Positions 1,345 through 27,153 of a stretch of DNA of 64,000 nt are shown in pieces. Position 1 is the first letter of the stretch, and each line of letters begins with the position of its first letter. Position numbers and translations under genes: made by a program. The DNA comes from Rhynchopus sp. YZ270_cl-10. Lineage: Eukaryota. Where the stretch lies: assembly GCA_964035575.1 (NCBI GenBank), contig OZ037834.1, forward strand, positions 310,001 through 374,000, read 5' to 3'. The notes under the pieces are model-generated. The model did not search any database. It was not told the DNA's origin and saw only the letters and a list, made by a program, of their open reading frames with translations.

Positions 1345-4300
1345 TATATGTGCTGATTCATCATCATGTCACTTTCTTGCAAAAAAAAAAAAAATATTGT
1401 TGTGTGCGTTCTGTGTTATTCCTTACAGTGAACGCAATATGACATTTTTTTTTTTTCAAGTTTTCTTTCTTTGGACTCTGTTGCAGCAAAATACAACCCC
1501 ATCTGTTTTGTTTTTTTTATTTTGATAGCATTTTTTTTATATTTGTGAAGATTGAAGGTTCTTTCTTCATCTAAAAAGATAGTTGCTCTTTCGGGTTGGA
1601 GACGGTCTACGTCTTTCCCGTAGTACAAAAACAAAAAAAAAAAGACAGTTGGTGGAGCACACTCTAGGGTGGCTACACTAATACAACCAAGTTTTCAAAA
1701 AGACAAAAAAAAAACAAAAAAGGCTTCAGACAAAACATTGAGTACAGACCCTAAAGTAACTCACTAAGGAAAAGCTCGGTTTTTTTTCATAAAAACCCCA
1801 TCCGTTATTGTTACGTTGTAACAACACTAAGGTGGGTACAATGTACAACTGATTTGTCGTTTTTCAACAAGAAATCGGCTTTTCACAGAAAAGAGGTCAA
1901 CTACGTTCAATGAAATGCCCTCACTGGGTAGGGTATGGAATGACGCGACAATTTCCCCCCACATCCCATTTTCCCAATGCGAGATTTTTCTTCATTTTTT
2001 TTTCACTGACATTTTCCATATTTCATCTTTTCCGTTCTTTCTTATCTCTTGACAACCGATCAAACACAGTCTCAGGTGTATGTAGTGTTAATCCTCGTAT
2101 TTCATCCAAAAATTCTTTCAAAAAAAAAAAAATAGTGGAGCACACTAGGGTGGCTACACTAATACAAAAAAAACCAAGTTTTCAAACAAACATAACATAG
2201 GCACTACTGACCAGTTCGGTCCTGAGGCGTGTAACAAAATGCCAAAGAAAAAAAACAAAACAAACAAAAAGTGCACATCACATTACATTCATCACACACT
2301 CCTTTCAGATTGGCCTCTGAGTTTACCCCCCCTCACCCCAGAGGTTCAATCTTAGCGGTCATCGCAAGACTGACCACACCACAGGAGAAACCAAAAAAAC
2401 CAGAAATATTTTTCAAGAAGAAAATAAAAAGCGAAGTAACCCCAAAGCAAAAAAATACGGGGATTTTATTTTGTTTGCATCAGTTTTATCCAAACTGATG
2501 ACAAAAAAAAAAAGCAACGAAAACTGGAACTATTTGAGGATGGGCCAAGCACAAAGAGGCTTTTGGTTCATCTTGCATGTGTGCAACAGAATTTTTTTCC
2601 CCCCCATTTATTTTCTCTGTGGGTCTCTGTGGGTACATTTAGTACCCTATTATACCTTCTATTCAGTAGAACAGATAGTATATGAAACAATTACTTCCTT
2701 TTTTTTTTCTGAAGTGTCTACGAGAGGCACATCGATCTTTACAAGTTTTTTTTTTTCCCACCGTTTTTTTTTTTTGAAGATGTGTCTGTGTACACGAGAT
2801 TTACATGCATCTTTAATTTGGTTGGTTGGGTGTCCACCACCCCCCGGTACAGCCGGTCACACCATAGGTACACTCTTCACAAGAGGGCTTTGTATTTCAA
2901 CTCTATTTTGTTTTCTCCTGGACACCAAGACAAGATGTACGGCATTAAGAAAGAGACAACTGCGTGCAGGCACCACTTTGCGTGGTAGCTGACCGTTTGG
3001 CAAATTTTCAAAAATAAAATAAAATATTCATTCCGATGATTTTGCTTGGTGTATTTTTTTCTTCTCGTGTACTTCCTTTTTTTAATAGGACACCACCTGA
3101 GCCTTGTTTCTTGCATTCTGCTTTGCAAGAGCTCTTTGTCTTGCTTAGAAACAAACTCTATTTTCCTACCATTTCCTTTTTCAGAAGAAAAATACAAAAA
3201 AAAGGCAAAACGTATCCCAGGGTCTTCTTTACAAGGTAGGTGGGAAAAAAGTACAGCCTACTCTTGAAACATTACTACAGCAAATGCTGCTGTTACCGCC
3301 TGGTTGCCAGAAAATAGAGAAAAATAACAAAAAAACCGATTGCTAGGAGTGACTCCGGCATCGCACGTTTTCAAAAGGTAATAAAGTGCTCGTCGTGAAA
3401 GGAATCTAGCCTGCTACAGATGGCATTTTGCGCCACAACGCACTGTCAATATAACAGTAATAAAACAAAGTTAGATAAAAAGAGTCAAAGAAAGGAGACC
3501 AGATAAACGAAAAAAGAGAAGCCGAAGATAATTTGAGATTATTTTTTTTTTTGCTTTCGATCCTGTGAAGAAAAACCGTGGCTACTATCTTGTGATAGTA
3601 GTCTATAATCAAACAAAAAAAAATTTTTGCTTTTATTTGAGATACCATCCACTTTTTTTTCTTATTTTTGTACCCTCTTTCATTTGCGGATTTTAGTGCG
3701 AAAGAGCGAACCTTCCGATTTCCCTTATTTTTTTTGGTTTCTGTTTTTTTTCTGTACTCACTTTTTTTTGAGCCCGAGCAACAAAGAAAATAAGACAGCA
3801 ACGACACCTTTTTCAAAGGTAAAGGCCTGGTTTATTTTTCTCTTTGTCTCAACTCAAAAAAAAAAAATACATTTTTGTTTCTTTATCATTCTTTGGGGGA
3901 TTTGTTACCTACCACTACAAGCACCCAGATTTTTTGTGATAACATATTTACGTCTTCTTAGGTAATATCAATAAAAGGGCCCACGGCATTTTCCCCATTT
4001 ATTCCTTTATTGCTGCGCGATAACGAATGTGATGACAAGGTGACCAAGTACGAGAGGCTTAGGGTCATCTAAAAAAACCTTTTCTTTATTTGGCAGCACA
4101 GCGTTATTATCCTTTTTTTTGTTTCTTTTATTTGAGAAATTGTTGTCAGTAGTGTAGTTTATGCCACCTGTGCAAACACCACTTTTCCTTTCTTGAAGGT
4201 GACTAAGCACAGAGAGAAAACAAATGACTGATGAATAAACCAAAGAATAATCCAATCAGACTAAGCACAGAGAGGCTTAGGTTCATATACCAAACTTTCC

Positions 4301-4413
4301 CTTATTGTTAAAGACGGGAACATTCTTTTATTGCACGTCGGGGCACTTTAATTTCACTCCCCTAACAAATTCCTGTAGAAAAATAAAAACGGCAGTGAAA
4401 TAAAATAACTAAT

Positions 4414-4569
4414 TATTAGCGTGAAATAAAGTGCACTTTTTTTCACGCCCACGTAATTTTGGCTCACGAGTGAGAGTTTATTGCCCGAGCCGCAGGCGAG
4501 GGCAATAATAGAGCACGAGTGAGACAAAATACGTGGAAGTGAAAAAACGCACTTTATTTCAAACTAATA
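4414..4569 (+). repeat. Long imperfect palindrome (hairpin 1) of the YR element
   Basis: Arm tattagcgtgaaataaagtgc...tattgccc pairs with gggcaata...gcactttatttcaaactaata. Apex is ccc-GA-gcc-GCA-ggc-GA-ggg (4484-4502). Confidence 0.9.
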
Positions 4570-4583
4570 CGTAGTTTTGTTTT

Positions 4584-4641
4584 ACAAGTGAAAATGATAT
4601 TTTTGCTGGGATCCTTCACAAACGAGACGTAAAATAGAGTG
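4584..4641. repeat. Left inner inverted repeat flanking the YR ORF (partner 6000-6056)
   Basis: acaagtgaaaatgatatttttgctgggatccttcacaaacgagacgtaaaatagagtg matches the reverse complement of 6000-6056 (acatgtgaaaatgactttttgctgggatccttcacaaacggggcgtgaaataaagtg). Confidence 0.9.
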
Positions 4642-4859
4642 ATTTTATGAACAAAATGTGGGTACCTGTAAGTGAGAGTGTGAATGAGAGTAGGGGAACA
4701 TGTGAACATCAATCAAAAGCAGGGAAGGGGTTACTTTTTTTGATATATGCCTCCTATGACTGGTACTAATTACAAGATGTCACCACTCATCTCGCCTGTA
4801 GGGGGGGGGCAGGTGTATAGAGCATCACAGAAGGGGGGGTTTTTTTTTTGCACTCATGA

Positions 4860-5876
4860 TCATGGTTTGTTCTGTTGCACATTGATGTTAATCTTGACTT
4901 CTTGTGGCGTCTGAGTTGGGGGACTGTTGTTCTGTGTCAACAGCTGTGACATCGCAACTTGACCGGCCTGTGTGACTTCGGTGTACCTTTGTGGCATTGC
5001 CTGACTGACCCACCCATAGTGGCGTTGCATCTGTACAATAGATGCTCCTGCCTCAGCGGCTTGAGTCGCAGAAGACCTGCGGAAGCTGTGCCCAGTGTAC
5101 GAACCGTCCAGCGCAAGCACCCTCGCGACTTCTGCAGGTATGCCGTACATTTTGTTGATGCCAAGAGGTTGCACACGAAAGGTCCCAGTAGTAGTTCTGT
5201 CAGCTGTCGTCTTAGTTCCAGTGATGAAGAAGCGACCCTCCTGTGAAACTGGTGAGCGCCGGTTCAGGTACTCCTCCACCACACAAAAGTAGATGCTGTC
5301 TCTTGGTACCACAAACCTCCCACGCTCCATGTCGGCCTTTTTCACCTTAGCACAGTGCTGGTACGTGAAGAGGTATCCCACTGGTGATTCCTGATAATTT
5401 GTCATCTCAAGCATCAGTGCTTCTGTGCATCTCATTCCCGACAGAAAACACACCGCGACGTAAGCCTTGCGGACACACCAGTAGCAGTCGCTCAACTCGC
5501 TCATCTTGAGAAACATCTCCACTTCTCCCTTCGAAAACGTCTTGCTCTTCTTCGTCGATTCGTCACTTCCCCAGGTCTTCAGCAACAGCCCGATGCGGTG
5601 GTACTCCTTTAGTGAAAAGTCGAACTCCGTCTTGAACATAAAGTTGAGCTTAGAGTAGCACGACCATAATGAGCTGGCTTTGTAGCTGCGTTCTTCGCGC
5701 AGGTGTGTCAAGTAAGAGACCACATGTTCTTCTCTTGGCTGCTTCCGCCCCGTGATTTTATTGTGTTGTAAAAACTTATTCCACTCCGTTTTGTATGCAG
5801 TGCTTGACTTCAACCCTGCCAGAAGCTCGGTCTCATACAGATCCTCCATAGCCTCCTTCTTCTTGGTCCTTGGCAT
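4860..5876 (-). CDS. Tyrosine recombinase (phage-integrase family), Crypton-like transposase, 338 aa, apparently intact
   Basis: Catalytic motifs in the correct order: R (SGMRCTE), HxxR (YTGHSFRRSSAT), H/W (HYGW), Y (PQRYTE). N-terminal core-binding-like segment (TAYKTEWNKF...SSLWSCYSKL). Balanced-GC coding island in AT-rich DNA. No reverse transcriptase nearby. Confidence 0.93.
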   Translation of the reverse strand: MPRTKKKEAMEDLYETELLAGLKSSTAYKTEWNKFLQHNKITGRKQPREEHVVSYLTHLREERSYKASSLWSCYSKLNFMFKTEFDFSLKEYHRIGLLLKTWGSDESTKKSKTFSKGEVEMFLKMSELSDCYWCVRKAYVAVCFLSGMRCTEALMLEMTNYQESPVGYLFTYQHCAKVKKADMERGRFVVPRDSIYFCVVEEYLNRRSPVSQEGRFFITGTKTTADRTTTGTFRVQPLGINKMYGIPAEVARVLALDGSYTGHSFRRSSATQAAEAGASIVQMQRHYGWVSQAMPQRYTEVTQAGQVAMSQLLTQNNSPPTQTPQEVKININVQQNKP

Positions 5877-5925
5877 GATTTGTAGGGTGGAGTGTGTGGT
5901 TTTGTGACTGACAGAAAACAGTGAA
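5877..5925 (-). promoter_or_regulatory. Putative trans-splice acceptor and short leader of the YR gene
   Basis: Minus strand reads tttcactgttttctgtcAG then tcacaaaaccacacactccaccctacaaatc-ATG. The A/C-rich leader resembles those of the host genes at 19966 and 24265. Confidence 0.4.
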
Positions 5926-5999
5926 ACTTTTTTTCACGCCAGTGAAACTTTTTTTCACGCCTCCAGCGAAATTACTAAGAGCAAGCGTGAAAAAAAGCT

Positions 6000-6056
6000 C
6001 ACTTTATTTCACGCCCCGTTTGTGAAGGATCCCAGCAAAAAGTCATTTTCACATGT
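6000..6056. repeat. Right inner inverted repeat flanking the YR ORF (partner 4584-4641)
   Basis: Reverse complement of 4584-4641, including an exact run ttttgctgggatccttcacaaacg. Confidence 0.9.
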
Positions 6057-6176
6057 GATATAAAAGGCTTTATTTCTTTATTTCACTCTTTATTTCACTC
6101 TTTATTTCACTGCTCGATTTTTTTTTTTTTTTCGCAAAGACAAAATTTTCAGCCGAAAAAAAAAATTTTTTTTGGG

Positions 6177-6417
6177 CTCAGATGGACCCAAAAATGCAAA
6201 TAAAGCAAGAATTTTGATGTTTTGAGCATCACATATTTATTCCCCGGTCATTTTCTGTACAAAAAACCGGTTTGTATGGGCCAGCGCCTTAGCAAAAATC
6301 CGAAAAATCGGGAAAAAAAAATTTTTTTTCCCCGGAAAATTTCGACTCCTGGGTGGGGTCTTGGGGTACCGAAAAATGCAAAAAAAACGCAAAATTTGGG
6401 TATTTTGACCATCTGAG
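6177..6417. mobile_element. Possible MITE inside the YR composite (ctcagatgg...ccatctgag termini)
   Basis: Terminal 9 bp perfect inverted repeat extended imperfectly (ctcagatggacccaaaaatgcaaat / atttgggtattttgaccatctgag). No clear TSD. Confidence 0.35.
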
Positions 6418-6730
6418 GGATTTTTTCACGTGTTTCACCTTAGATGGAAGCGGATGCGGCTGGTGGGGGTGGGGTGTGCCCACCTACGGGAACAGTGCTG
6501 CCTGTGGAGTGGCCACTCCATCTGCCTCAATGGTGTTTAGGTCGGACATCAGCAACTCTGCAAGGTTGTGATACAGGAGATAAAGATATTTCGAAAAGAG
6601 AAAAATTTGAATGAAGATAACCCCAACACCAAAGGGAAGTTGATACGATGAACGTAAGCCTTGAGAACTAAGCGTTTAGCAGACCCCCGGGTTGTGAAAT
6701 AAAAGTGCCCCGTTGTGCAATAAAAAAATG

Positions 6731-6890
6731 TATTGTTGGTGTAATATTTTGCCTTAATTTCACTTACAGCCCCAAAACCCCTCGGAGTGGTATTTTTTCC
6801 CCTCGGGCTGCGCCCTCGGGGAAAAAAACCACTCCTCGGGGTTTTTTGGGGCTGTGCGTGAAATAAAGGCAAAAATATTACACGTCAATA
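6731..6890 (-). repeat. Long imperfect palindrome (hairpin 2) of the YR element
   Basis: gtgtaatattttgccttaatttcac (6739-6763) pairs with gtgaaataaaggcaaaaatattacac (6858-6883). Minus-strand apex is cccc-GA-gggc-GCA-gccc-GA-gggg. Confidence 0.9.
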
Positions 6891-8411
6891 ATATATATTA
6901 TTGATCCCACCTCCGATGCTATCAATTTATTGGATGCTTATGTTGCAATATTGTTTTTTTTTTTTGCGAATCTCTGTATTCTTCCTTTAGGTGATCCGAA
7001 AAAGCAGTGCGAACGAGAAGCTCAGGCTCACCTTCACAAAACGTTTACTTTTTTTTTGCAAAAAAAAAGTGTGCAATTTTTTTTCTTCTCCTCTTTTGTT
7101 TGTTTGCTATTTTCTCTCTTTGTTTGGATCTCTCTGTCTCCTTTTATCTCTCTCTCTCTCCAAGCTGAGGTGTTCCATCACTGACAGAAGGGGGTTTTTT
7201 AAAAAAAAAAAACGGGCAAACCAATGCTTTCTGTTCCTCTGAATTGAAAGAAATTGATTGTATTTTTTTATCCACCTGATTTTCTGCCAAACACCGCCAA
7301 AATTGGAGGGTCTAAAAATCAGGTGGTTTTATACCGTGCCTTCTTATCCATTCCTCCTTCTTTGTCAACGGATCACGTTCTGCGTATTTTCTTCATCTCC
7401 AGAGTCCAGACAAGCAAACAAAACAAAAAAAAATAAATAATAAAAAATGCACATTTTATTCTCTCCACAAATTTTTTAAAAAAAAATATGAAGTTCACTC
7501 CCTTTGCTGTTTCGATAACCAAAAGCAGAGTGGGTAAGGTGCCTTTGTCGTCCACAGTGATGTTTCTTTTTTGGCACACTACTGTATAATCGTTTACTTT
7601 GTCGCCCACATAATCTATCAACTTAGTTAATTGGCGTGTGACAAAATTGAACGATTGTACAGTAATCCTCAACTTCCATTTTTTTTCTCTCCAATAAAAT
7701 GATTCATGCGACCCTTGCAATTTTTTTTTGAAAAAAAAATTCTTATTATGCCTTGTGTTACAGAACCCCGTTATTTGGATAGGGGTGATTGTCGATACGA
7801 CAAAAAAAAAATCGGTACATAAAAATATGACAAAAAAATGAGTGTTTTTTTTTGGTGAATAACTGTCTGAACTGGCAGCTTTTTTGTTTGTTTGTTTACC
7901 TTTCATTTTTTAACCCCTATGGTGAGGGGTGTCTGACTGCCAGTGTTTTTCGACTTTTTATTTCTTCTTCTTTTTTGTGTGGAAAAATATTCAAAACTTA
8001 TTTGATGTGTTCGCATTCCTTCGAGTGTTCTCTCTGATCTTTTTTTGATAGGAAAAAAATGCCAAATTGTCTTGACAAAAATGAAAACTAAAAATGACTT
8101 TAAAATTGACAGTGCGTGCTCCATTATATGTTTGTCACCACGAAACAAGATAGAAGACTGCGTGGTTGGGGGGGGGGAGGGTTGTCCACCACCCCCCCCT
8201 ATGGGTGCACTAAAGGTTCACTGTCAACGAGAGTGCTTTTTTTGGATTTCATATGTCAATTTTTGTTTACCCATCCCCGCCCCGTTTTTTTTTTTTTTTT
8301 TACAGCACAACCATTAACCCTGCTCTTTGGTTTTGTGAGAGTGGTGATTGTTGCAATATTCTCAACATTAAAAAAAAAAAAAAATCCGTCTATATCTTTT
8401 AAGTACAATAG

Positions 8412-8466
8412 CCTTCGGGCGACATTGAGTACAGATCCTGCATTAGCAGGTGATTGTCGACACAAC
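8412..8466 (+). repeat. Hairpin repeat family D (also 9182-9260, 7755-7800, 14734-14776, partial 1735-1752)
   Basis: cgacattgagtacaga-[variable stem]-ggtgattgtcga, with closing stem cgaca/tgtcg. Confidence 0.6.
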
Positions 8467-10868
8467 AAAAAAACCAAATGCAGTCTACCAATGACTGTAA
8501 AAAGAAAAAGAAAATAAAAACTCCCGTACGGTGCTGTAGGAAATGAGTCAGCGACCTGTCAATATTGGCCCCCCCCTGGAGCACCACCGTAGCTTTTGCT
8601 TTTCTTCTTGTCCTCAAAAGAGGCTTCCTCTTCACAGGGCCAAGGTAGTGGGGAGCGTATTGTGGAGTAATAAAATATCAACACAAAATACTTTACGCAC
8701 AACAAATTTTCTCCTCCCCCGCCCCCGCCACCTCTCTTAACAAAACGCCACCAAACAAACAAAAAAAACAGAGCAAAATACAAAAAAAAAAAAACTTTCA
8801 AACATATTTCTTCACAAAACGTTCTCTTTTCGTTCTTTCTTTCATATGCGATTACTATTCAGAACGAAAAAAAAAACACGAAAAAAGAAAAAAAAACTCA
8901 CACAAAACAAAACAGAAAAAAAAGAAGCCGTGCTTTTGAGTCACACTTTATCCTAGCTCTGATGCACGCCTTATGGTTATAGGTTGTGTGCAATGAAGAG
9001 CAGGGTGTGGAATAGTTCCTAAAAGTGGGGGCATATTCCCATGGGATGTACCTTTGTGTAGCTCTTCAGAAGTAATTATATTATAGTCGTCTTGCAAAGT
9101 GTGTTTTATACAGTTTTCATTGGACAGTCTCTTGAAGAATTCGGAGGAATTTTTTTTTTTTTTAAGCAGTAGTACGCGAAGGCTTCGGACGACATTGAGT
9201 ACAGGTCTGTGTACAGGTCTGTGTACCACCTTTATTCCGGTAGGTGTCAAGTGATTGTCATGTCAAACAAAGAAAAAGAAATTCGAAGTCTTTTCTTTTC
9301 TTTTCCAAACGAAAACCAGAAAACGCACAAAAAAAATAAATACTCTTTTTTTTATTTTGATTTCAAAGCAAGTCTCTCTGCCCAAAGGCCTCTTGAATGA
9401 GGGGGGGGTATCTAAAAAGAAGAAAAAAAAATAAAGTCAACTACGATCGATAACTGGGAGGGGATTTCACCCCACAGTTTAGTCGATTACTCAAACCCTC
9501 AGTAACAAAAACGATTTATTTTTATTTTTGTTTTTTTATTTTTTTGTATGGGAAAATGAAAGAATTAAAAAAAAATGTGCTCTCTCGGTCTCTTTCTAAG
9601 GATTGTATTTTGTTGTATTTTTCTCTTGGCAGAAGGCAAAACGTGTCTTCTTGTCGATGATACACACAAAACAAGCATATAAGGAGGGGTATTGAACAAC
9701 AGCGTTCACACCCTTGTTTATATGCAGCATTTTATTTTTCCTTTTTCTTTTTTTTTTTTTTCTCTTTGGACAAGAGTGTAAAGATGTGTCTGTGGTGCTT
9801 TTCAGGGGGGTTTTCACAGCTTTTCATACCCACATGGTTGTGAAAGAGTTGTGAAAAAGTTTTGAAAAAGTTGTGAAAACCCCACCCCGTATAGCACCAA
9901 AAATCTGTGAAATAAACATATCCGAGCTTTGTTTTATTGTTTTTGCTTGCGCTTTTCATCCGGGGTTGGCATCGTACCGATGGGTCAGTCGGAGGGTGTG
10001 CCTGCATCAACAATCAACCATTTTTCTTTTCTTTTTTTCCTTTTCCCCCTTTCCCCTGCTTCCTCCCAGAATGTCCCACACACACCACCCCTCTACGTTT
10101 TATGCATTATGAAGACACACCTCACACAGACCCTCGTGGTCTTTCTCGAGATGTTTAAATAAAGCACATTATCACACAAATTCCTTCTTTTATTTGAGAG
10201 CTGTTAATATGACAGCCTGAGAGAGCGTTTTGTTCCCCTCTTCCCTTTCCCCCTTTTTTTTAAAAAGGGTCCCACAAACCAGTAAAAGAGATTTACGTAT
10301 GTGTACGTAACGCTTGAATTAAGAGAGAGAGAGAAAAAATTGATAGTGAAGACTGCCTGAATGGCAGCTACACTAAACAAACAAATTACCAAAAAAAGGG
10401 CATTACCGAATTCCCATATTTTTTAAAAAAAAGGTGGGAGGGAAGTAGTGCTAATAAAACCCCTGTTATTTTTCTCTCTCTGGGAATGAAATCATCGGAA
10501 ATTTATTTTTTCTGACAAAAAATTAGGGGGAAAGAAAGTGGAGTTGTTGCACACATAACAAAAGGGAGGCAACAACTCGTAATAATTCCAGAAGAAAAAA
10601 AAAAGTTATTCACAGAAAAAAAAAGAATAAAAACACAAACAAAACAATTTCCCAAATTCCCCTATTTTTCTTTTTTTGAACAAACAGTTTTCTTTTCTCT
10701 TTTCCCTTCTTCTTTCCTAGTCCCCTGTACATTTTCATGCAACCCAAAAATTCACCGCTGAGTGATTGTGTGGATGTGTTTGGGGGACAGAGACCCCCAA
10801 TTTTTCATTTTTTTAAAAATCTATTTTTCTTTTCACATTTTTTTTTTTTGCAACAAACAATAAGTCTA

Positions 10869-12633: not shown

Positions 12634-15232
12634 TTAATAACTTCACTTTTCTTTTTTGAAACAACGTTCTTTGAAAAAAAGGAGACGGCTTGCGTGGAGT
12701 TCACACAAAAAGAGGTGTCTGCACGTTGCCAATTTTTTTTTAAAAAAAAAATGTTACAAAATCCGTGTCCTAACATTGCTGTTTTTGTCTGTTATGCTGG
12801 TTTTTTTTTTATATTTTCTCTTCCATCTCCTTCTTGCTTCCCCTCCTCCCCCCCTTTCGTAATTGCATGTTAAAACTTTGCATAAAAAACCCCCTTCAAA
12901 ACGTGGCAGGACTCCTGTTCTTCCTGTTCTATCACACACCAACACCTTTTTTTTTTTGGTTTTTTTTTTATTTCCTTTTTTATGAACAATTTCCTTCTGG
13001 TTCAAAACCACCCCCCCACATACACCAGGTTTGTTTTATTTGCACAGAATTTCAACAAAAAAAAAGAGGTTTCCACGAAAACGTGAACAGGGGAGGGCGG
13101 ATTATGTGGATTACCCGTTCGCGGGGGGGTGCACGTTGTCACAAAAGTTTTCAAAGAAAAAGAAAAACTAAGCATATCGTAGTATGTACCCTGTTCCGCT
13201 TTCTTCCCTTTTTATTTGGAAATTATGTGAAAAATAATTTTTTTGTACAGAAACAACCGTTCTGGCACAAAAGAAAAGAACCTTTTTTGTGGGAGATGGT
13301 GGTCATAAGCAACTGACAGCAGCCTTTTGTCTCTTTTAGTATTGTATTTTCCTCTCGTTTTTTTTCTCTCTTTTTATGCCACACGGTGAAGTAGAAGTAC
13401 TTGACTTGTGGTTTTTTTTACTTTTGTGATTTCCCACCGTTGGCTTACAACGGTAAAGTCACAAAATCAAACGGAAAAAAAAAATACAACCTAACGAGAT
13501 GAAAGGTAGCTGAGATGCGATAGCCGTTGAACCAGGTTTTATTGAAAACTTCAGATTTTTTTTTTCCATTTTTTTTTCCCTTCATTTTTTCCTCTTCTTA
13601 CATATATGACAACATTGAGACACCGGGGGGGTTACATTATTTAGAAGTAGTGAACACCTTAACCATATCCCTTGTCTTTTCATTATACCTTCTATTCAGT
13701 AGAATAGTTAGTATATTGGTGTTCCCGAAAGGGCCCATATTGACAGGTCCTTGACATGTCCTTGACACAAGGTTTACAGGGGAAAATGACACACCCCCCC
13801 TATATTGACATGTCCTTGGCATGTCGTTGACATGTCCCCGACAGCAGATCGGTAACACCATATATGAAAAAAAAAATTTTTTGTGTCCCCTCCGCACCAA
13901 TGAAAAAGAACTGTCTCTGAAGATGTAGATACACTATGTTGAAAATTCCACCTCTTTTGTTTTTTTTTGCACGATCATTACAAATGCAAAAATCCCATAA
14001 AAGGTACGTGGTTTGGCTGTACTGTGATACTTTGCCTTATTTCATAATACATAATACACATTTCACAGTACAGCTACTACCTACTATAAGGGGTCCAGAT
14101 TCCCAGGAGGGGGGGGAAAAAAAAAATACATTTTCGTACAACAGAGGCGGAACGTCTTCTTATCTGCATGTATTGAGACAGTAATTTACACTAAAAAAAA
14201 TTCCTCAAAAAAAACAAATATTATCGGAACCATGGTGCGTATTGTTTGCTTGGGTAAATTTTTTTTTTGTGTGGAAAAGACCATGGGATGTTTTGTTTTT
14301 TTTTTTCTCTTTTTTTTTTGTACCCCCGAGTGTTCCTTTGTCTAGAACCTTATTTTTCGACGGAGATGGTGTGTGCAGCGCTATCGTGAATCACATTCAT
14401 TCCAATCTTCTTTTACCTATAATTTTTTTTTCCGACGCAAAAATAAAAATAAAAAATAATGTTGCACACATGTGCCACAGCAACTTCACGCATCCTATAT
14501 GAACATAAAAAAAAAGTAATTTTTTTTTTCCTTCTTTTTATCAGCACCACAACTCAATGTTACAGTTCAGCTTCCAGTATACTTTGGGAAAGGGGTAAAG
14601 AAAACTATGGTGGAGTTTTTTTTTGGGATTTTCCACCTGATTTTTTTGACCCGAGTTTTGGCGGTGTTTGAGCAGCGTTGGGCTACCGGGTCAGATCAAG
14701 GTGGGTTTTCAAAACAACAAAAAAAGAAACTATGTGTTACAGAACCCATCCTCAGACAGGTGATTGTCGAAACTACAAAAAACACCTGAGGAGAAGTGAG
14801 GAGGGAGGGGGGTTTTTTTTTTAAATCTCTCCCAATATTTTTTCAACTTACAAAGTACTACAATGAAATGCAATACAAAACAAACAGAGTAGCAAAAACA
14901 AAAACAAAAACAACAAAGTTGAAACAAACTTTTTTAAACCTCTCCCAATATTTCTTGGAGCACTGTTTTATCTCTTCACGCATATTTCATGTTCGCAGAG
15001 TGAACAGATCACTCAGTGGTGTGTGAAAAAAAAAAAAAAAGCAACAACAACACGATCATCAATTGAAAAAAAACAAAAAAAAAAAAACGTTTGCCTTCTG
15101 TGAAAGTAGTCTATCGTGTCATACATTCATTATTGTGCAAAAACTATTAAAAAAAAAAAGGAAAGAATAGTGGAGCCCATCCTCGGGTGTTCAGGTCTAC
15201 ACTAAACATTTCCTTTTTTCGACCTACCCCAA

Positions 15233-15356
15233 CCACCTGATTTTTTACCCCGCGTATAGGTGCGTACAGACCACATTACAGGCGCGTACACGCGCTTATA
15301 CAGTCCTATACGGTCCAAAACTCCCCTTTACGCGAGGTAAAAAAAAAATCAGGTGG
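15233..15356. mobile_element. MITE family with CCACCTGATTTT termini (also 7272-7326 and 14633-14704)
   Basis: ccacctgattttttacccc...ggtaaaaaaaaaatcaggtgg. Two shorter copies share the termini, and these two share aaacaccgccaaaa in opposite orientations. Confidence 0.6.
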
Positions 15357-16554
15357 GGTGGGCCAACCCCGAATCAAGATCCTAAATCCAAGCTATCCAA
15401 TTAGCCGTACCCTCCTCTCTTCGCACATCGCTTTGGTTAAGGATCTAAAAAAGCTAAACAGACACAAACACAAAATAGCAAAAACAAAGAGTACAAACAT
15501 AACAACAAACCTTTTCAAACCCCCCCCTCTTTCTCCTCCCGTATTTAGGACACATCTTTTTTGGGGTATTTTTTTTTAAGGTGACCAAGCACCGAAAGGT
15601 TCAGGTTTTATCCTTTGACCGTGCACGGAAACACATTCATTCCAGGAAAGAGTTTTTTTTTTTTTTTGTTTCGATACAAGACGGCTAAGCATTGTAGTGC
15701 CATCTCTGAGGCTTGTCTTTCTACTAAAAAGCTTTTTTTCTGTTTATTTCTCGTGGGAAGGTGTGAAGTGTATTGTGTACGATGAATGATAATCGCACCC
15801 ATTTTTTTTAAAAAAATCTACCCCATATTATTAACGATTTCTTTTTTATATATTCCGAACAGGAATGGGAAAAACATTCTTTTTATTGATCCCCTCCTAT
15901 GCTCTCAATTCATTTGATTGTATAATATTATGTTGAAATACTTATTTTCCGAAGCTTGCTCTAAAGGAGAAAAAAATAGTATTACCGATGCCAAATCATC
16001 CCTCAAACAGGAGGATTTTTTTTTGTGCAAATCAAACGAACCAACTTTTTTTACTTTGCCGATCCTACTATTTTTAAAAGGTGACCTAAAAACATACAAA
16101 AGACCTTAGGACCCATCTTCGCCAAATTTTATTATTATTATTTCTGCACCTTTTTTTTATCATTTGTTTTTTTGCCATGCCTTTCTTGTCCTGCCAACTT
16201 CTTTTGATTCTATCTTTTTTATTTCTAACAAATTTAAAAAACATAGAGCAACAAAACGAATCAATGGGTTTTCCACGCTTAGTAAAAAAGGCGGTGTGAC
16301 AAATCCCACTAAACGATACCCCTGGATAGGGTCAACGTTGTGCATAACTTCATTCAGTTATATTTGTTCTTCGGGGGGGAAATTGTTGTGTTCATCAGCA
16401 GTTACTTAGTGTTTTAGTATAGTGGAGTTCATCCTCGGGATGTTTGAGCTAATACAAAATACATAGTGGTGCACACTCTAGGGAGGCTACACTAATACAG
16501 TACCGGTTATCGGAATGTACCATTGGTAATCAGTGGTGGTGTGATTCAGGGGGT

Positions 16555-17766: not shown

Positions 17767-18562
17767 TGAAAGACAGATAGGTGCAGAGAGGTGCACACAT
17801 CTTTTTTTGGTTTTTTCATTTTCCTTTTCTTTTCCCTTTCAAATGCTTTCAATTCTGTGAACTGAAAGTATATGAATCTAATTTTTTCCTGGCCGCAGGG
17901 TATGTTGTACTTTCACTCTGGATGCCTGGCATCGTACAGTGGGTCAGTCGGAGGTGCGCCTGTACCAACAACTGCCCGATCATTTTTTTCTCTTCTTCTT
18001 CTTCTCTCTCTCTCTCTCTCTTTTCAACATGATGTGTTTTGCGTGCTTAAAGCGTGTATAAGCTTTTTTTTCAATCCTCCTCTTCCCCTCCCCCCTCTTT
18101 GAAACAAACTTTTCAAACCCCCTTCTCCCTCTTTTTCTTCAAAGAAACCAACAAAAACAAAGTATAGCGGAGCATACTCTAGGGTGGCTACACTAATACA
18201 AAAAAAACCAAGTTTTCAAAGAAGAAAAAAACAAAAAACAACAATAACAGCAACACAAAGACACAACATTTTTTTTTTAGGTGACTATCCCTCATAGGCT
18301 TAGGTCCATCGTATAAACTTTTCTCTCTCTCTTTTTATTTTTTTTTGCTTCTCCTTCATTCTTTTTTGAAGGGTAAAAAACCAAAGGCAACTCTAAGCAT
18401 CCAAAAAACCAGAGATTTCCCTTTTTTGTCTCAAAAATTTACCCCCTTTTTCCCCCTTTGTGTGTCCTCACCCCCCCCACCCCCACCACCCCAGACCTGA
18501 AAAAGAATCCTTTGTTACCAGGTCAACCCTCCTACATACGTAGCAACAACAATAACAAAACA

Positions 18563-19245: not shown

Positions 19246-19281
19246 AGGTGACCCTAAGCACAGAGAGGCTTAGGTTCATCT
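19246..19281 (+). repeat. Hairpin repeat family B, representative copy (~9 copies)
   Basis: Consensus aggtgactaagcacagagaggcttaggttcatc. Copies near 4038, 4197/4260, 6989, 12438, 12520, 15579, 16079, 18279, 19246. Confidence 0.75.
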
Positions 19282-19965: not shown

Positions 19966-22787
19966 ATGAGCGGACTCGAGGCACGTTTCATTTTTAACTA
20001 TAACGAGGCTAAAAAGACCGCGGCTCAAAATTCCGAGGCTAAAAGTAAGAAGGCTAAAAGTACCGAGCAGGAACGCGCCAGACCACGGCACATGTACCAC
20101 TTCAAATCCTCGGATGCTTGGAACCCAAACAACTTCAAAACTGATATCAAGGCTATCCTGGCTTGCAAGGAATTCACCGACCTCGTGCGACAACTGCAGT
20201 ATCCTGCTGGGGTCGAGTTGCTCTGCACGTTGCGCCAGAACAACGAGATCGACGACAACGCACCAACGGAGAAGATCGTAAGGCTGCTGCTGACAGAGTT
20301 CATAAGGAAAGACGGTGAGCTGAAGGGGAGACAGCTGCAGTGCAACACAAATGTGTTCCTCGCCCGCGCAGAGCACTGCAAGTTTTATAAGGAACTCTCT
20401 GAAGGCACATTGGTTAAGAATTCAAAGATATTCGCGAGCCTGCACCCGACCCTGAAACACCCCATCAATGCTCAAGGGTCACTGCCCGAAGAGGATGGGT
20501 TCATGCGTGTGCAATTCGAGAAAGAGTTCCAAGAAGACAGCGGCGTGGAGGGCATCGAAAGACGCGCAAAGGAAAAGTACGGCGAGAACCCCGGGCAAGA
20601 ACTCATGAGCTTTGAGGCGCGCTGGACCAAGGAGGGGAAGATCAACTTTGAATTCAAGCTGCCCCTCAGCGGGGAAAGTGTAACGAACGAGGACTTCGCA
20701 CACCTGCCGTGCCCTGTCGCGAAGGATAGGTTCAACTACGACGTACACGTGCTCCCCGTTGTGTCCACGCCAGAGCAGTTCTTCGAGGCATTCGATGATG
20801 CGCCACAGAATTGGAACACTGTCTACGTGGACGACGAGCTTCAAGGCAAACTCAATGACGCTTACCTGAAAAATAACGACGTAGTTGTCAAGGAGCGCCT
20901 CATTGTGGTGACTGTGGCGCACAAAGACCGCAAACACTTGGAAGTCACTTACACTGTGAAGGAGAGCAAGCCTGGGGATCCGACCCGCATCTTTAACCCC
21001 GTCGATGAAGCAAAAAGCCTACTGCAGCGCTCCCTTGTGTCCGGCATCAAATGCCAACGCGATCACAACCACAATATCAAGACTTGTTCATATTATCACT
21101 CGAAGGAGAAAGCCTCCGACATCATCAAGGAGGTGCGTCGCGGGCAAAAGTACATCGACGCCGACGCCAAAAATGACAAAAACCCCACCGGGTTCAAGGA
21201 CTATATGTGTCGTGGGTATTCTTGGCTGTGGGGGAACATTGACAAGAACTTTGCTGGTAAGAACTATTTCAGGACGGATGTGGCCATTGTGTTCAATAAC
21301 AACAAGAAGGAGACTGGTGAGTGGGTGGTGACACACCGAAGAGCAGCTGAAATGACAGAGAGAATCAGCACAGATGGGGAATCAGTTATGGTGTATGAGA
21401 AAAAGACGGAAACCCTGGAAGAAGGGCTGAAAAGGTCTTTGAACACAGTGCAGGGGATGTACGAACTTCTCAGCGACGACCCAGACTTGCTCGACAAACT
21501 CGACTGTAAGTACCTCACTCGGGCGACTGTCCGTTACCCCCCGCCGGTCCCTAAAGCGATACCGTACTGCCGATTCTACGGAGGAAGGCTGTCCCAGCTC
21601 TCCAACAGTCTGTCGTTTGCACTTGCCAAGACCAAAGAAGAGGCGGATAAACTGAAGGTCAGCCTTACGTCCTCGAAGTGGGGAGGTGTGAAGAGGGATA
21701 CATCAGGACACACAGCGAAGAGTTTCCTGCGAAAGCTCTGGGGAAGACGGTTGGGTGGATCTGGAGGTATCAAGGTAAGCCGTACTGTAATAACAAAGCT
21801 GCAGACTTGTTTGTGTTCTGCGACGTAGATGGGTACAGCGGCCTCTGGTTCGGAAAAAATAAGCCACCAGACAGCGTGCAGACGTGGGCTAGACAGGACC
21901 TAGTGAACGAATTCGAGGACGAACTCTCTTCCTTGAAGGAAGCCCGCCCTGCACAAGACAAATCCTCGACCGCAGGACCACCGATTTCTTCAGCGAAGGG
22001 CGCAAGCTCTGCGCAAGACATATCTTCCTCTTCACAACTTCCCCAGAAATCTTCCTCAAAGCAAGCCGGGAAAGCAGCGTACTCACCAGCCTCTGCACTA
22101 GACACATCCTCGGCCGCAGAACCACTGTTTTTTTCAGCGGATAAAAACCCGTCTCCCACTACACGAGCGGGGCAGGATGCTTCCCGGAGAGCTTCCCAGG
22201 GAGATTCCCAAAAGCGAGCCCAACGATTGGTTTCTTCAGCGAAGGGCGCAAGCTCCGCGCAAGACACATCTTCCTCTTTACAAACTCCCCAGAAATCTTC
22301 CTCAAAGCAAGCCGGGAAAGCAGCGTACTCACCAGCCTCTGCACGAGACACATCCTCGGCCGCAGGACCACTGATTTCTTCAGCGAAGGGCGCAAGCTCC
22401 GCGCAAGACGCATCTTCCCAGCAGTCTTTCCCACAGAAGCAAGCCGGAAATGCTTCATCCCCCTCTCCAGCAGCGGACTCATCAGCCTCTGCACATGCCA
22501 CATCCTTGCCAACCACTGCAGGACCAGATGATCTGAAGGTGTGCAAGGGCGTTATTAACGGCCATCTGGAAGAGCTGGAGGACGTCCTCCTATCCAAGGA
22601 GAGAGTCAACACGATGCAAAAACTACTGAATGAACCGGGTATGTCCGAGTTGAGGTGCATAGCCATGGGTCGGCAACTTATGTTGAACGAATGGGAGGAA
22701 TGCTCTCGCAGAGACTTGGTAGCTTTAATTAAAGGCACACTGTCTGATATGCGCAAACTGTGCCCCGGTACCTCGTACCTACGTTAG
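19966..22787 (+). pseudogene. Paralog 1 of an uncharacterised protein family (~940 aa if repaired), broken by a 1-nt frameshift at ~21694; pseudogene or sequencing error
   Basis: ORF 19966-21828 aligns to the 962 aa paralog up to SSKW. Homology continues in ORF 21678-22787 (GYIRTHSEEFPAKAL vs GYIRTHKAEFPAEAL). DNA gtg-aag-ag-gga-tac vs paralog gtg-acg-aag-gga-tac. Confidence 0.75.
21985..22460 (+). repeat. Internal coding repeats in paralog 1 (SSAKGASSAQD...KQAG)
   Basis: ~143 bp block at 21985-22127 repeated at 22231-22373, with a partial third copy from 22375. Confidence 0.8.
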
Positions 22788-24264: not shown

Positions 24265-27153
24265 ATGAGCGGACTCAGGGAAAGCGTCTGGGATAAATAT
24301 GCCAAGGGGGAAGACGCCAACGGACCACGGTATATGTGCCACTATAAACCTGCGGACGCAGCGCCTGAGGACCGAAAGAACTTCGCTGATATGAAGGAGA
24401 TCCTGGACGAGGAATTTCCCAACCACGTGCGGCAACTGCGGTATTCTGCTGGGGGCGAGTTGCTCCGCATGTTCCACCGTGACAGCAAGATCCGCGACAA
24501 AATGATCAAAGGAAATATACCAACAGCCACCACGGAGAAGCTCGCAAGGCTGCGGCTGACAACGTTCAAAACGAAGAATAACGAGCTGAAGGGGAAACAG
24601 CTGCAGTGCGACACAAACGTGTACCTCACCTACGCAGAGCGCTGCAGGATTCATAAGGAGCTCTCTGAAGGCACATCGGATATCAATTTCCCAGAGATAT
24701 TCGCGAGCCTGTACCCGACCCTGATACACCCCATCGATGCTCAAGGGTTGCAGTCTGTATCCGGAGAGGATGGGTTCATGCGTGTGCAATTCAGCGACAA
24801 CTTCAACAAAGACAGCGGCGTGAACGGCATCAAAAAACGCGCTAAGAATTTTGGGGGACCAAAGCTCACGAGCTTCGAGGTGCGCTGGACCAAGGAGGGG
24901 AAGACCAACTTTGAATTCAAGCTGCCCCTCAGCAAGACATGTGTAACGAACAAGGACTTTGCACACCTGCCGTGCCCTGTCGCGAAGGATAGGTTCAACT
25001 ACGATGTCCACGTGCACTCCGTTGTGTCGACGACAGAGCAGTTCTTCAAGGCATTCGCTGATTCGCAACAGAATTGGAACACTGTCTACGTGAACGACAT
25101 CGAGCTTCTGAAAAAACTCCAGCTACCTGACCTGAGAAAGAACAACGCTTCCAGTACCTACGAGCGCTGCATTGTGGTGACTGTGACGCACAAAGACCTG
25201 AAGTACCTGGAAGTCACTTACACTGTGAAGGAGAGCAAGCCTGGGGAGGAGGACAGCATCGTAGACCCCGTGGCTAAAGCAGACGACCTACTGAAGTACT
25301 GCCTTGTGGACTCCCTCAAATGCGATCCAAGCAAAGGTGCGTGTCAAGGGCTCGAAAAGTGTGCATATTATCACGTGAAGAGGGACGCCACCACTGCCGA
25401 CATCATCAAGGACGTGCTTCGTGGGGAAAAGTGCATCGACGCCGCCGCCAAAATAGTCAACAAATCCGGTTTCAAGGACAGCATGCGTCGTGCGTATTCT
25501 CTGCTGTGGCAGAACATCGACCTGAACTTCGTTGATAAGAACGGACCCCACGCGGACCTCGAAGTAGCCGTTGTGTTCGAGAACAAAAAGAAGGAGGATC
25601 GTGGGTGGGTGGTGACACACCAAAGAGCAGCTAAAATGACCAGAACCAGCAAAGATGGGAAACGGACAGAAGTTACGGTGAAGGAGAAAGAGAAGGAAAC
25701 CCTGGAAGACGGGCTGAAGAGGTCTTTGCAAACGGTGCAGAGTATGTACGAACTCCTCAACTCATCCTTGCTCGGCAGTCTCGACTGCAAGCTCCTCACT
25801 CGGGTGACTGTCCGTTACCCCCCACCGGTTGACTCAATGAAGTACTGCCGATTCTACGGGGGATGGCTGGCCGAGCTCTCCAAAAGTCTGTTGTTTGCAC
25901 TTGCCGAGTCCGAAAAAAAGGCAGACATTGTGAAGGACCACCATACGTCCTCAAAGTGGGAAGATGTGACGAAGGGATACATCAGGACACACAAAGCAGA
26001 GTTTCCTGCGGAAGCTCTGAAGGGGAAGACGGTTGGGCTGATCTGGACTTACGGAGGTGAGACGTACTGTAATGACAAAGCTGCAGACTACTTTGTGTTC
26101 AGTGACGCAAAGGGGTTCAGCGGCCTCTGGTTCGATGGAGAAGATAAGCCAGCAGACGACGTGCGTGAGGGGACTGAGGGACTGGACAAAGTTAAGAATT
26201 TCTATGGCGAATACCCGTCCTTGGAGCCCAAGCAAGCCGCCCAGACACCCAAAACCCCGCCTTCCCAGCTAGCTTCCCGCACCCCCCCCGTACAAGCTTT
26301 GCCCTCATCTCCTCAAAAGCAAGCCATGCAAGCCGCATCTCCCCCAGAGCAAGCCGGGAACGCTTCGTCCCCCCCTCCAGCAGCGCACCCAGCAGCCCCT
26401 GCACGAGACAGACCCTCGCCAACCGCAGGACCACTGGACAGCGGTGCACTGCGTTTCTCCTCATCTCCCCAAAAGCAAGCCACGCAAGCTTCATCTTCGC
26501 CGAAGGCACCGCACAGTAGCCCCGAGCAAGCCGCATCTCCCCCTTCACACGGGCCCCACGCAAGCTCCGACCCCCCCAGCAAACGGGCTCCCCAGCTGCC
26601 TCCCTCAGAGCAAGCCGGGAATGCCTCGCCCCCCTCTCCAGCACCGCACTCAGCAGCCAGCACAAGACAGACCCTAGTCAACCACAGGACCACTGAACAG
26701 CAGTACACCGCGTTTTACCCACCATACAGCCTCGCGCCCCCTTCACACGGGCCCCACGCAAGCTACGCCCATCCCTCCCACCCGCCTTCCCAGCTGCCTC
26801 CCCCAGAGCAAGCCGTGAATGCTTCGTTCTTCCCTTCAGTAGCGTACCGACCAGCCCCACAAGACAGATCTTTGCCAACCGCAGGACCACGCAACAGCGT
26901 TGTACGGCCTCGGCACAAGATGATGATTAGCAGCTATCTGGAGGAACTGTCGGAATTCAGCCACCTCGAGAGGAGGGTCAAGGTGATGCGAGAGATACTG
27001 AATGAACCGGACCTGTCCTCTGTCGAGATGTGCGAGGACATGGATGTGGAACTTAATCTGATGAAGAGACAGAACAGCGGGAAGGAATGCCCTAGCAGCG
27101 ACCTCGTGCACGCAATTGAAGACACACTGTCCGTGATAAAGCGCGGTACGTAG
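24265..27153 (+). CDS. Uncharacterised 962 aa protein (paralog 2): globular N-terminal ~650 aa with a CCCH-like motif, P/S/A-rich linker, short helical C-terminus
   Basis: Long intact ORF with colinear similarity to paralog 1 (e.g. DFAHLPCPVAKDRFNYDVHV identical). C-x6-C-x5-C-x3-H at 25321-25374. No family recognised. Confidence 0.88.
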   Translation: MSGLRESVWDKYAKGEDANGPRYMCHYKPADAAPEDRKNFADMKEILDEEFPNHVRQLRYSAGGELLRMFHRDSKIRDKMIKGNIPTATTEKLARLRLTTFKTKNNELKGKQLQCDTNVYLTYAERCRIHKELSEGTSDINFPEIFASLYPTLIHPIDAQGLQSVSGEDGFMRVQFSDNFNKDSGVNGIKKRAKNFGGPKLTSFEVRWTKEGKTNFEFKLPLSKTCVTNKDFAHLPCPVAKDRFNYDVHVHSVVSTTEQFFKAFADSQQNWNTVYVNDIELLKKLQLPDLRKNNASSTYERCIVVTVTHKDLKYLEVTYTVKESKPGEEDSIVDPVAKADDLLKYCLVDSLKCDPSKGACQGLEKCAYYHVKRDATTADIIKDVLRGEKCIDAAAKIVNKSGFKDSMRRAYSLLWQNIDLNFVDKNGPHADLEVAVVFENKKKEDRGWVVTHQRAAKMTRTSKDGKRTEVTVKEKEKETLEDGLKRSLQTVQSMYELLNSSLLGSLDCKLLTRVTVRYPPPVDSMKYCRFYGGWLAELSKSLLFALAESEKKADIVKDHHTSSKWEDVTKGYIRTHKAEFPAEALKGKTVGLIWTYGGETYCNDKAADYFVFSDAKGFSGLWFDGEDKPADDVREGTEGLDKVKNFYGEYPSLEPKQAAQTPKTPPSQLASRTPPVQALPSSPQKQAMQAASPPEQAGNASSPPPAAHPAAPARDRPSPTAGPLDSGALRFSSSPQKQATQASSSPKAPHSSPEQAASPPSHGPHASSDPPSKRAPQLPPSEQAGNASPPSPAPHSAASTRQTLVNHRTTEQQYTAFYPPYSLAPPSHGPHASYAHPSHPPSQLPPPEQAVNASFFPSVAYRPAPQDRSLPTAGPRNSVVRPRHKMMISSYLEELSEFSHLERRVKVMREILNEPDLSSVEMCEDMDVELNLMKRQNSGKECPSSDLVHAIEDTLSVIKRGT

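Follow-up and report, generated by a model that had tools for sequence, protein, structure and literature searches.

Polarised terminal hairpins in two nested CryptonI-like elements of Rhynchopus sp. YZ270_cl-10 and a candidate folded-strand route of transposition

Introduction

Can a eukaryotic tyrosine recombinase move its element as a single folded strand of DNA? The question is raised by a 64,000-nt stretch of Rhynchopus sp. YZ270_cl-10 (assembly GCA_964035575.1, contig OZ037834.1, positions 310,001 to 374,000; here called the window and numbered from 1 on the forward strand), in which a tyrosine recombinase gene lies close to two long DNA hairpins, each with GA/GA mismatches and a GCA loop at its apex. 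An initial annotation had read the region as a single Crypton-like element bracketed by both hairpins and had proposed that the hairpin serves as a folded attachment (att) site or as a single-stranded DNA origin. Transposition of Cryptons has not been shown experimentally, and a duplex circle is assumed in a 2026 review (PMC13565253). As far as the accessible text of PMC3212892 goes, CryptonI is found only in insects and animal Cryptons have no terminal repeats; supplement 1 of that work gives CryptonI-1_RPro a length of 1,657 bp. Here we describe two nested elements whose hairpins obey a common strand rule, and consider it probable, if far from certain, that such elements transpose as one folded DNA strand that is copied out and re-inserted by a single exchange.

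Results and Discussion

Two nested elements with one hairpin each

The region consists of one element, A, inserted in a gene-less relative, B, and each of the two has one terminal hairpin (Table 1). Copy number and nesting were judged from the depth of public contigs (four runs) over positions 3000-8500, depth being a rough measure. In run X1, four contigs of unique flanking DNA had depths of 103-117, compared to 6050-6263 for the contigs of A (4402-4781, 4867-5571 and 5597-6064) and 2485 for a contig of B (6536-6801). A joint leading from 4403 straight to 6062, which skips 1658 nt with no letters between, was found in three of the four runs (X1, X2 and X7) and had a depth of 2834; it has a play of two letters, and the register of A was set by the family end rule described below. 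One X2 contig, in which 4322-4403 is fused to 6062-6150, is a copy of B free of A, while another carries the inner element after a flank unlike that of the window. Freed of A, which sits directly after 4405 and behind GTGAAATAAAA, a stretch resembling A's own far end, B measures 915 bp; it is present in roughly 22-26 copies by contig depth, and its longest stop-free frame does not exceed 111 codons. Its right edge is marked by an X2 contig that stops at 6902 and a unique contig that begins at 6874. The identical recombinase protein is recorded on 37 contigs, and A is a mobile element present in many copies, its ends defined and a fixed target duplication absent. Given the depths and the 4403 to 6062 joint, the two hairpins do not bracket one element, as first annotated, and belong instead to two separate, nested ones. 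The converse history, with B plus A as the full-length parent and B as its deletion product, was ruled out, as the depth of A is about double that of B and A also occurs in other flanks.

Within B, the two diverged ~180-nt units (6186-6230 resembles 6368-6413 at 81%) have a summed contig depth of 48,000-64,000. In X1, two loose contig ends beside the apex of hairpin 2 (one contig each) are mutually exact complements and unlike the window; these ends, which may not form one contig, look like a compensated variant of B.

Table 1. Coordinates of the two elements and of the features within them
Feature	Position	Strand	Remarks
Element A	4406-6063	+ (hairpin-first strand)	Autonomous transposon of 1,658 bp, placed as CryptonI-type; ~55 copies by contig depth
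Hairpin 1, 5' terminal hairpin of A	4406-4576	+	Two CGAG/CGAG tandem G.A motifs, C-GCA-G loop
Hairpin 1 apex (GA, 3-bp stem, GCA loop, GA)	4484-4502	+	
Internal complementary region (ICR)-like segment of A	4577-4642	+	Complementary to A's far end
Tyrosine recombinase open reading frame (ORF)	4860-5876	-	338 aa, intronless; R149, K177, H263, R266, W289, Y298
Cluster of short palindromes, inverted GTGAAA motifs	5918-6014	.	Upstream of the ORF
Far (3') end of A	5999-6063	+	Ends in ATAA
Element B, far-end piece	4328-4405	-	End 4328 placed by the family rule, ~1-6 nt uncertain; 4328-4362 pairs with 6689-6731
Element B, main piece	6064-6900	-	Non-autonomous; hairpin 2 at its start
Two diverged copies of a ~180-nt unit in B	6128-6430	.	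Match a very high-copy host repeat
ICR-like segment of B	6689-6731	-	Complementary to B's far end, 4320-4362; p 0.005
Hairpin 2, 5' terminal hairpin of B	6722-6900	-	Two tandem G.A motifs, C-GCA-G loop

Two homologous hairpins

In a scan of the 64 kb in 170-nt frames, hairpins 1 and 2 had the lowest folding energies (z-scores -13.1 and -16.3, with none of 200 shuffles as stable), and they are the sole matches on either strand to the pattern GA-stem-CGNAG-stem-GA. All four GA/GA pairs and both GCA loops were found where they had first been described: at 4487-88/4498-99 and 4468-69/4517-18 with the loop at 4492-94 in hairpin 1, and at 6817-16/6804-03 and 6837-36/6783-82 with the loop at 6811-6809 in hairpin 2. 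The palindromes are longer than the ~155-160 nt originally given (171 and 179 nt), and their arms, which had been called largely different, are identical at 112 of 166 aligned positions when read from the outer ends. Of all hairpins compared, each has the other as its closest match, and of their 65 base pairs, 16 have changed in a compensatory manner and 38 are unchanged, while 8 are broken and 3 gapped. These alignments indicate that the hairpins are homologous.

A family-wide apex

Relatives were collected with a profile-free protein search (393 proteins at E<1e-10), after which a 12-sequence alignment gave 60 metagenome loci. The corresponding searches of viral contigs (107 pattern matches) and prokaryote genomes (5 matches) gave no confirmed relative; a scan of viral contigs with the DNA apex pattern gave 8 matches, none of them a long hairpin or near a recombinase; and a word-indexed homologue search returned only the recombinase's own cluster. 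A fold scan recovered a stem of at least 30 bp in 26 of the 60 loci, or 22 of the 36 with long flanks, and after near-copies were collapsed there were 21 hairpin families, 15 of them with a GA/GA-type apex. In a stricter scan that scored every tandem mismatch and included the window hairpins, GA/GA or TC/TC made up 16 of 184 tandem mismatches, and these fell in 13 loci away from the ORF, in hairpins 1 and 2 of the window, and once within an ORF. A GA/GA apex outside the gene was present in 13 of the 60 metagenome loci, compared to ~1.0 per shuffled set. The inner stems of the apex motifs range from 1 to 5 bp and vary in sequence, CGAG stands on both sides in 12 of the 15, and the loops are GNA in 8 of 15 and GNNA in 3 of 15; the apex of locus L031 is identical to that of hairpin 1. 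Retention of GA/GA and of G-N(N)-A loops across distant relatives while the stems vary is what the initial annotation had expected. With the independence of loci judged from copy flanks and ends and from the protein tree, the sequences indicate that the hairpin end design is family-wide in CryptonI-type transposons.

Two related families (L033/L034/L038/L041/L043 and L054/L055) have no GA/GA and keep the C-GCA-G loop, and their hairpins contain numerous G.T pairs on the hairpin-first strand. These G.T pairs are an alternative way to the same bias. Near the apex of L016 (9-146) and L032 (161-297) there are asymmetric GAA/GA internal loops, which resemble the bubble in the left-end hairpin of the parvovirus MVM.

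The strand rule

The GA motif is always on the strand that has the hairpin at its start, irrespective of the direction of the gene. With the hairpin upstream of the gene, the coding strand bears GA in 6 of 6 cases, and with the hairpin downstream, the non-coding strand bears it in 7 of 7 cases plus A (Fisher p 3e-4 for the two sets); GA in the gene-less B is on the hairpin-first strand too, giving the same strand in 15 of 15 GA/GA cases (13 loci, A and B). On a tree of 21 labelled and 5 unlabelled rows (L058 was too short and was left out), gene orientation relative to the hairpin changes 6-7 times, and at least four of these changes are forced by supported branches; the GA strand therefore follows the hairpin end and not the mRNA, and the rule is not one inherited case. 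Single mismatches, counted without near-copies and without the three hairpins that have no apex motif, point the same way, with 31 G-containing versus 7 C-containing on the hairpin-first strand (20 versus 7 minus the two G.T-rich families). The motifs are thus strand-specific in the sense first annotated, GA/GA occupying one defined strand in the relatives as well.

The lone exception in polarity concerns L054 (84-223) and L055 (2478-2617), which are 97% identical and have apical segments of ~25 nt that are mutually inverted; either template switching or an assembly error may have produced this flip-flop. Resolution of the hairpins by a protelomerase-type reaction was set aside, since apex polarity is fixed, L054/L055 apart.

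Element ends, internal complement and predicted site

In A, a 68-nt inverted match joins 4575-4642 to 5999-6065 (85%; p 0.005), and in both A and B the 3' arm of the hairpin together with the adjoining segment is an inverted copy of the joined ends. Because the DNA at the hairpin base complements the far end, one folded strand would bring both ends together. When A is folded as a circle, an unbroken stem spans the junction whichever strand is taken; the first T bulges out next to a loose patch. Across the family, a far-end complement was found in 14 of 28 rows, which represent 7 of the 21 metagenome families plus A and B (p<0.02, uncorrected).

The exact ends come from two relatives, one represented by L033, L034, L038, L040, L041 and L043 (98-99% identical) and the other by L054 and L055, in which every copy is differently flanked. 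At the hairpin base these copies open with T-T-R, and they close with GATAA; their flanks have A or T beside the junction and a variable 0-5 letters in common with the opposite end; the fixed direct repeat of 5-6 bp that characterises CryptonF and CryptonS is absent from the 8 copies. Because end homology is variable (0-5 nt), there is no shared overlap for a second strand exchange. L033 also contains an end-to-end junction without extra letters, which agrees with the internal segment bar one extra base. Applied to A, the register of the relatives gives 4406-6063, a length equal to the 1658-nt skip.

The elements end in TAA and T-W-R. Joined, they form TAA/T-N6-TTA (the slash marks the junction) in A, in the L033 and L054 families, and in L002 and L046, whose ends are putative; the fit is poorer in B and L032. 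This junction has a symmetric core with a 7-nt spacer; the spacer that it faces in the internal copy is mismatched and mostly 6 nt long. The motif W-W-T-W-R-N4-TT at the hairpin base, facing a T-tract, occurs in 14 of 23 hairpins, a count for which no chance level was computed. Since the internal segment pairs the hairpin base with the far end, the crossover is predicted to lie at that base, 60-90 nt from the GA/GCA apex. By prediction, folding one strand can form a site of the single-stranded type, with inverted binding sites and an unpaired spacer. The copy in L040 (2777-4176) starts exactly at the 3' base of a missing hairpin and has plain inverted ends left, a start that fits deletion of a folded hairpin.

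The recombinase

The 338-aa product of the ORF matches PF00589 (E 3e-9) and otherwise gives only a weak SAM-like match, and the six residues listed in Table 1 are invariant or nearly so in 44 aligned relatives, features of an intact tyrosine recombinase. Its structure model has a predicted local distance difference test (pLDDT) score of 90.6, and the best fold matches are Cre and Tre (template modelling (TM) score 0.72). There is no C-terminal domain (no GCR1_C and no CryptonS tail); the model ends in a short tail, and the C-terminus (4860-4900, - strand) is a short, hydrophobic, strand-like segment, which many relatives also have behind a variable linker. A has this single ORF and encodes no reverse transcriptase, RNase H or gag, and B encodes none of these. 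The palindrome cluster upstream of the ORF contains two tandem copies and one that resembles a short palindrome within hairpin 1's 5' arm, with a 30-nt match between 5985-6014 and 4419-4448 of that arm. These GTGAAA palindromes are possible autoregulatory binding sites.

A probable folded-strand mechanism

CGAG blocks form sheared G.A pairs in DNA (PMC10085684), and GNA and GNNA mini-hairpins are far more stable as DNA than as RNA and bind single-strand binding protein poorly (PMC13037366). A route built on these properties would begin with exposure of the hairpin-first strand, at a replication fork or through supercoiling, whereupon its G.A/GNA apex would nucleate folding and resist single-strand binding protein. 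The internal segment would then splint the two ends of the element together, and the recombinase would cut after TAA and join the ends into a single-strand circle. Once folded, the circle would offer a duplex TAA/T-N6-TTA site with a mismatched spacer, and insertion would be completed by a single strand exchange with a duplex target rich in A/T and by subsequent replication in the host. A two-step duplex exchange is disfavoured because overlap homology is lacking.

The apex itself is likelier to aid folding or priming than to be an att site, since it lies 60-90 nt from the predicted cut and since in integron attC the apex plays no part in strand choice, which is set by extrahelical bases near the core (PMC2727003).

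Several observations weigh against the folded-strand route. DNA nearest-neighbour energies, which the initial annotation had proposed to compare between strands, are nearly equal (-49.9/-48.9 kcal/mol for hairpin 1 and -61.8/-62.0 kcal/mol for hairpin 2); they show no strand preference, and it is conservation and published structures that carry the strand argument. The data used to test the polarity rule are those from which it was drawn. Moreover, 14 of the 36 long-flank loci have no hairpin by the fold-scan criterion, 6 of the 21 hairpin families have no apical GA/GA, and the far-end complement is not significant in 14 of the 21 families, many of whose contigs are short. The end-to-end junction in L033 may be a tandem insertion, no free circle having been seen, and ATAAAA lies as a direct repeat across the two junctions of A (4400-4405 and 6060-6065), as the classical model expects, although it would give a skip of 1660 and not the observed 1658. 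The fold of the enzyme is nearer to Cre, which acts on duplex DNA, than to the integron integrase 2a3v (TM 0.57). A tyrosine recombinase also leaves no 3'-OH, and restoration of the donor is unexplained. That the 338-aa enzyme recombines folded single-stranded DNA is itself something we infer from sequence and analogy.

There are several potential alternatives. It is possible, though unlikely, that the element is excised as a duplex circle, in which the joined ends and the internal segment make up an imperfect palindrome of ~300 bp that forms a cruciform, the GA arm alone integrating. Such a circle is assumed in the published Crypton model (PMC13565253) and agrees with the Cre-like fold and with the stem that runs continuously over the junction on either strand; however, the lack of a fixed overlap in the insertion flanks should block the second exchange of a duplex excision, and the ~55 near-identical copies suit copying out better than cutting out. 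The recombinase might instead act on duplex ends, with the apex as a priming or host-factor signal (a single-strand origin) for copying the displaced strand. The 60-90 nt between apex and predicted cut, the presence of GNA/GNNA mini-hairpins in the G4 and ssiA priming sites and in N4 promoters together with their poor binding of single-strand binding protein (PMC13037366), and the absence of strand choice by the attC apex (PMC2727003) are all in line with this, but it leaves unexplained both the internal segment that mirrors the two ends and the conserved T-tract opposite the first T. We hold it to be quite improbable as the whole account, and note that a priming role can be compatible with folded-strand transposition.

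An end layout that is that of DIRS1 (PMC8969392, PMC6681497) could also point to an RNA and complementary DNA (cDNA) route, in which a reverse transcriptase is borrowed from DIRS retrotransposons and the folded strand is the cDNA. A, with 1,658 bp and one ORF, has no such enzyme, its copies are full length with exact ends, and a gene that flips at least four times while the GA strand stays constant would make the template RNA sense in some elements and antisense in others, leaving this route very improbable. Just as little weight is given to a classical duplex Crypton whose hairpin arose incidentally from duplicated binding sites, its mismatches merely guarding the palindrome from deletion. 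The ATAAAA repeat at both A junctions, the recurrence of GTGAAA motifs in both arms, the equal energies of the two strands and the exact loss of the hairpin in L040 would fit it, but a protective mismatch has no need to be GA/GA set in CGAG, to accompany GNA loops or to keep to one strand in 15 cases out of 15, which weakens the explanation.

Other features of the window

An intronless ORF of more than 11,340 codons begins at 29980 on the + strand and is open at the window end (64000); it consists, in order, of a C-type-lectin-like start, vWA domains and cysteine-rich 975-nt repeats (alternating 486/489), and no close relative of its first 500 residues was found. Two paralogous ORFs of 620 and 962 aa lie at 19966-21828 and 24265-27153 (+), one of them with a weak CCCH zinc-finger match. 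A third long imperfect hairpin (15223-15362; -39.5 on the - strand versus -32.5 on the + strand) has no GA/GA apex, and a search for a far-end partner gave none that was convincing. No Rfam family was found in positions 1-30000. A short dispersed repeat with a GGCTTA core occurs at 4040-4290, 6637-6665, 18291-18320 and 19254-19279, twice to the left of B and once inside it, and the summed depth of contigs at 3920-4287, 3552-3735 and 8336-8500 is very high.

Comparison with known systems

A folded-strand route is known from bacteria and has not been shown for Cryptons. Exact ends and a predicted substrate, cut position and strand are now available for a recently amplified, intact 338-aa enzyme, so that the mechanism could be tested with short oligonucleotides. 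If it holds, this would be the first eukaryotic recombinase known to us that acts on folded single-stranded DNA, and Cryptons would be linked to DIRS1 through their ends. It would also supply a rule for annotating gene-less Cryptons and a compact, homology-independent tool to insert single-stranded DNA circles.

Among described groups, A is provisionally placed with CryptonI (Kojima and Jurka 2011, PMC3212892) by its size (1,658 versus 1,657 bp), its single ORF encoding a protein with no C-terminal domain, its box II motifs, which agree by eye with six published CryptonI rows (PMC3212892 supplement 4), and the nearest Atlas cluster of its recombinase, which is arthropod. The tyrosine recombinase and Crypton assignments of the initial annotation are borne out by these features together with PF00589 and the catalytic residues. 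A and B resemble CryptonI also in having non-autonomous derivatives and no fixed terminal repeat. Unlike published CryptonI, A possesses a terminal hairpin of 170 nt together with an internal segment that complements its two ends. The host differs as well: an intronless ORF of more than 11,000 codons makes an insect unlikely and suggests a protist, perhaps of diplonemid type. No Crypton terminal hairpins or ICR were found in the literature searched, which lay outside the Repbase text and most subscription journals; hairpins go unmentioned in the accessible parts of PMC13465315 and PMC5753468, and the available text of PMC12166591 has nothing on them.

An ICR complementary to both ends is common to DIRS1 and to A and B (PMC8969392, PMC6681497), but A and B are without the reverse transcriptase, RNase H, gag and long terminal repeats of DIRS1 and have in addition a strand-specific G.A/GNA apex. 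Terminal hairpins with asymmetric inverted repeats, a 5' T and a single-strand intermediate are likewise shared with Helitron2/Helentron elements (PMC8969392), which differ in their HUH enzyme and far shorter hairpins. The closest precedent for copying out is offered by the elements called SEs (PMC9345347), in which a tyrosine recombinase makes a one-strand circle while the donor stays filled; unlike A, SEs have four core genes and take 6 bp of flank into the circle, and no long terminal hairpin is reported in the accessible text. In bacteria, CTXphi attP(+)/XerC and attC/IntI combine a site folded from one strand, a mismatched spacer and a single exchange resolved by replication (PMC4246890, PMC2727003, PMC3442271), the same combination that is predicted here, and a strand bias is likewise seen at attP(+) and attC, whereas A is eukaryotic, has its own Cre-like enzyme and uses no fixed target site. 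Whether animal-type Cryptons as a group correspond, among eukaryotes, to integron and CTXphi recombination seems to us evenly balanced; if so, they would be one-gene elements copied out as a self-splinted single-stranded DNA circle that is inserted by a single strand exchange, DIRS1 would stem from an element of this kind that acquired a reverse transcriptase, and the DIRS1-like complement of Cryptons would be older than DIRS1 itself.

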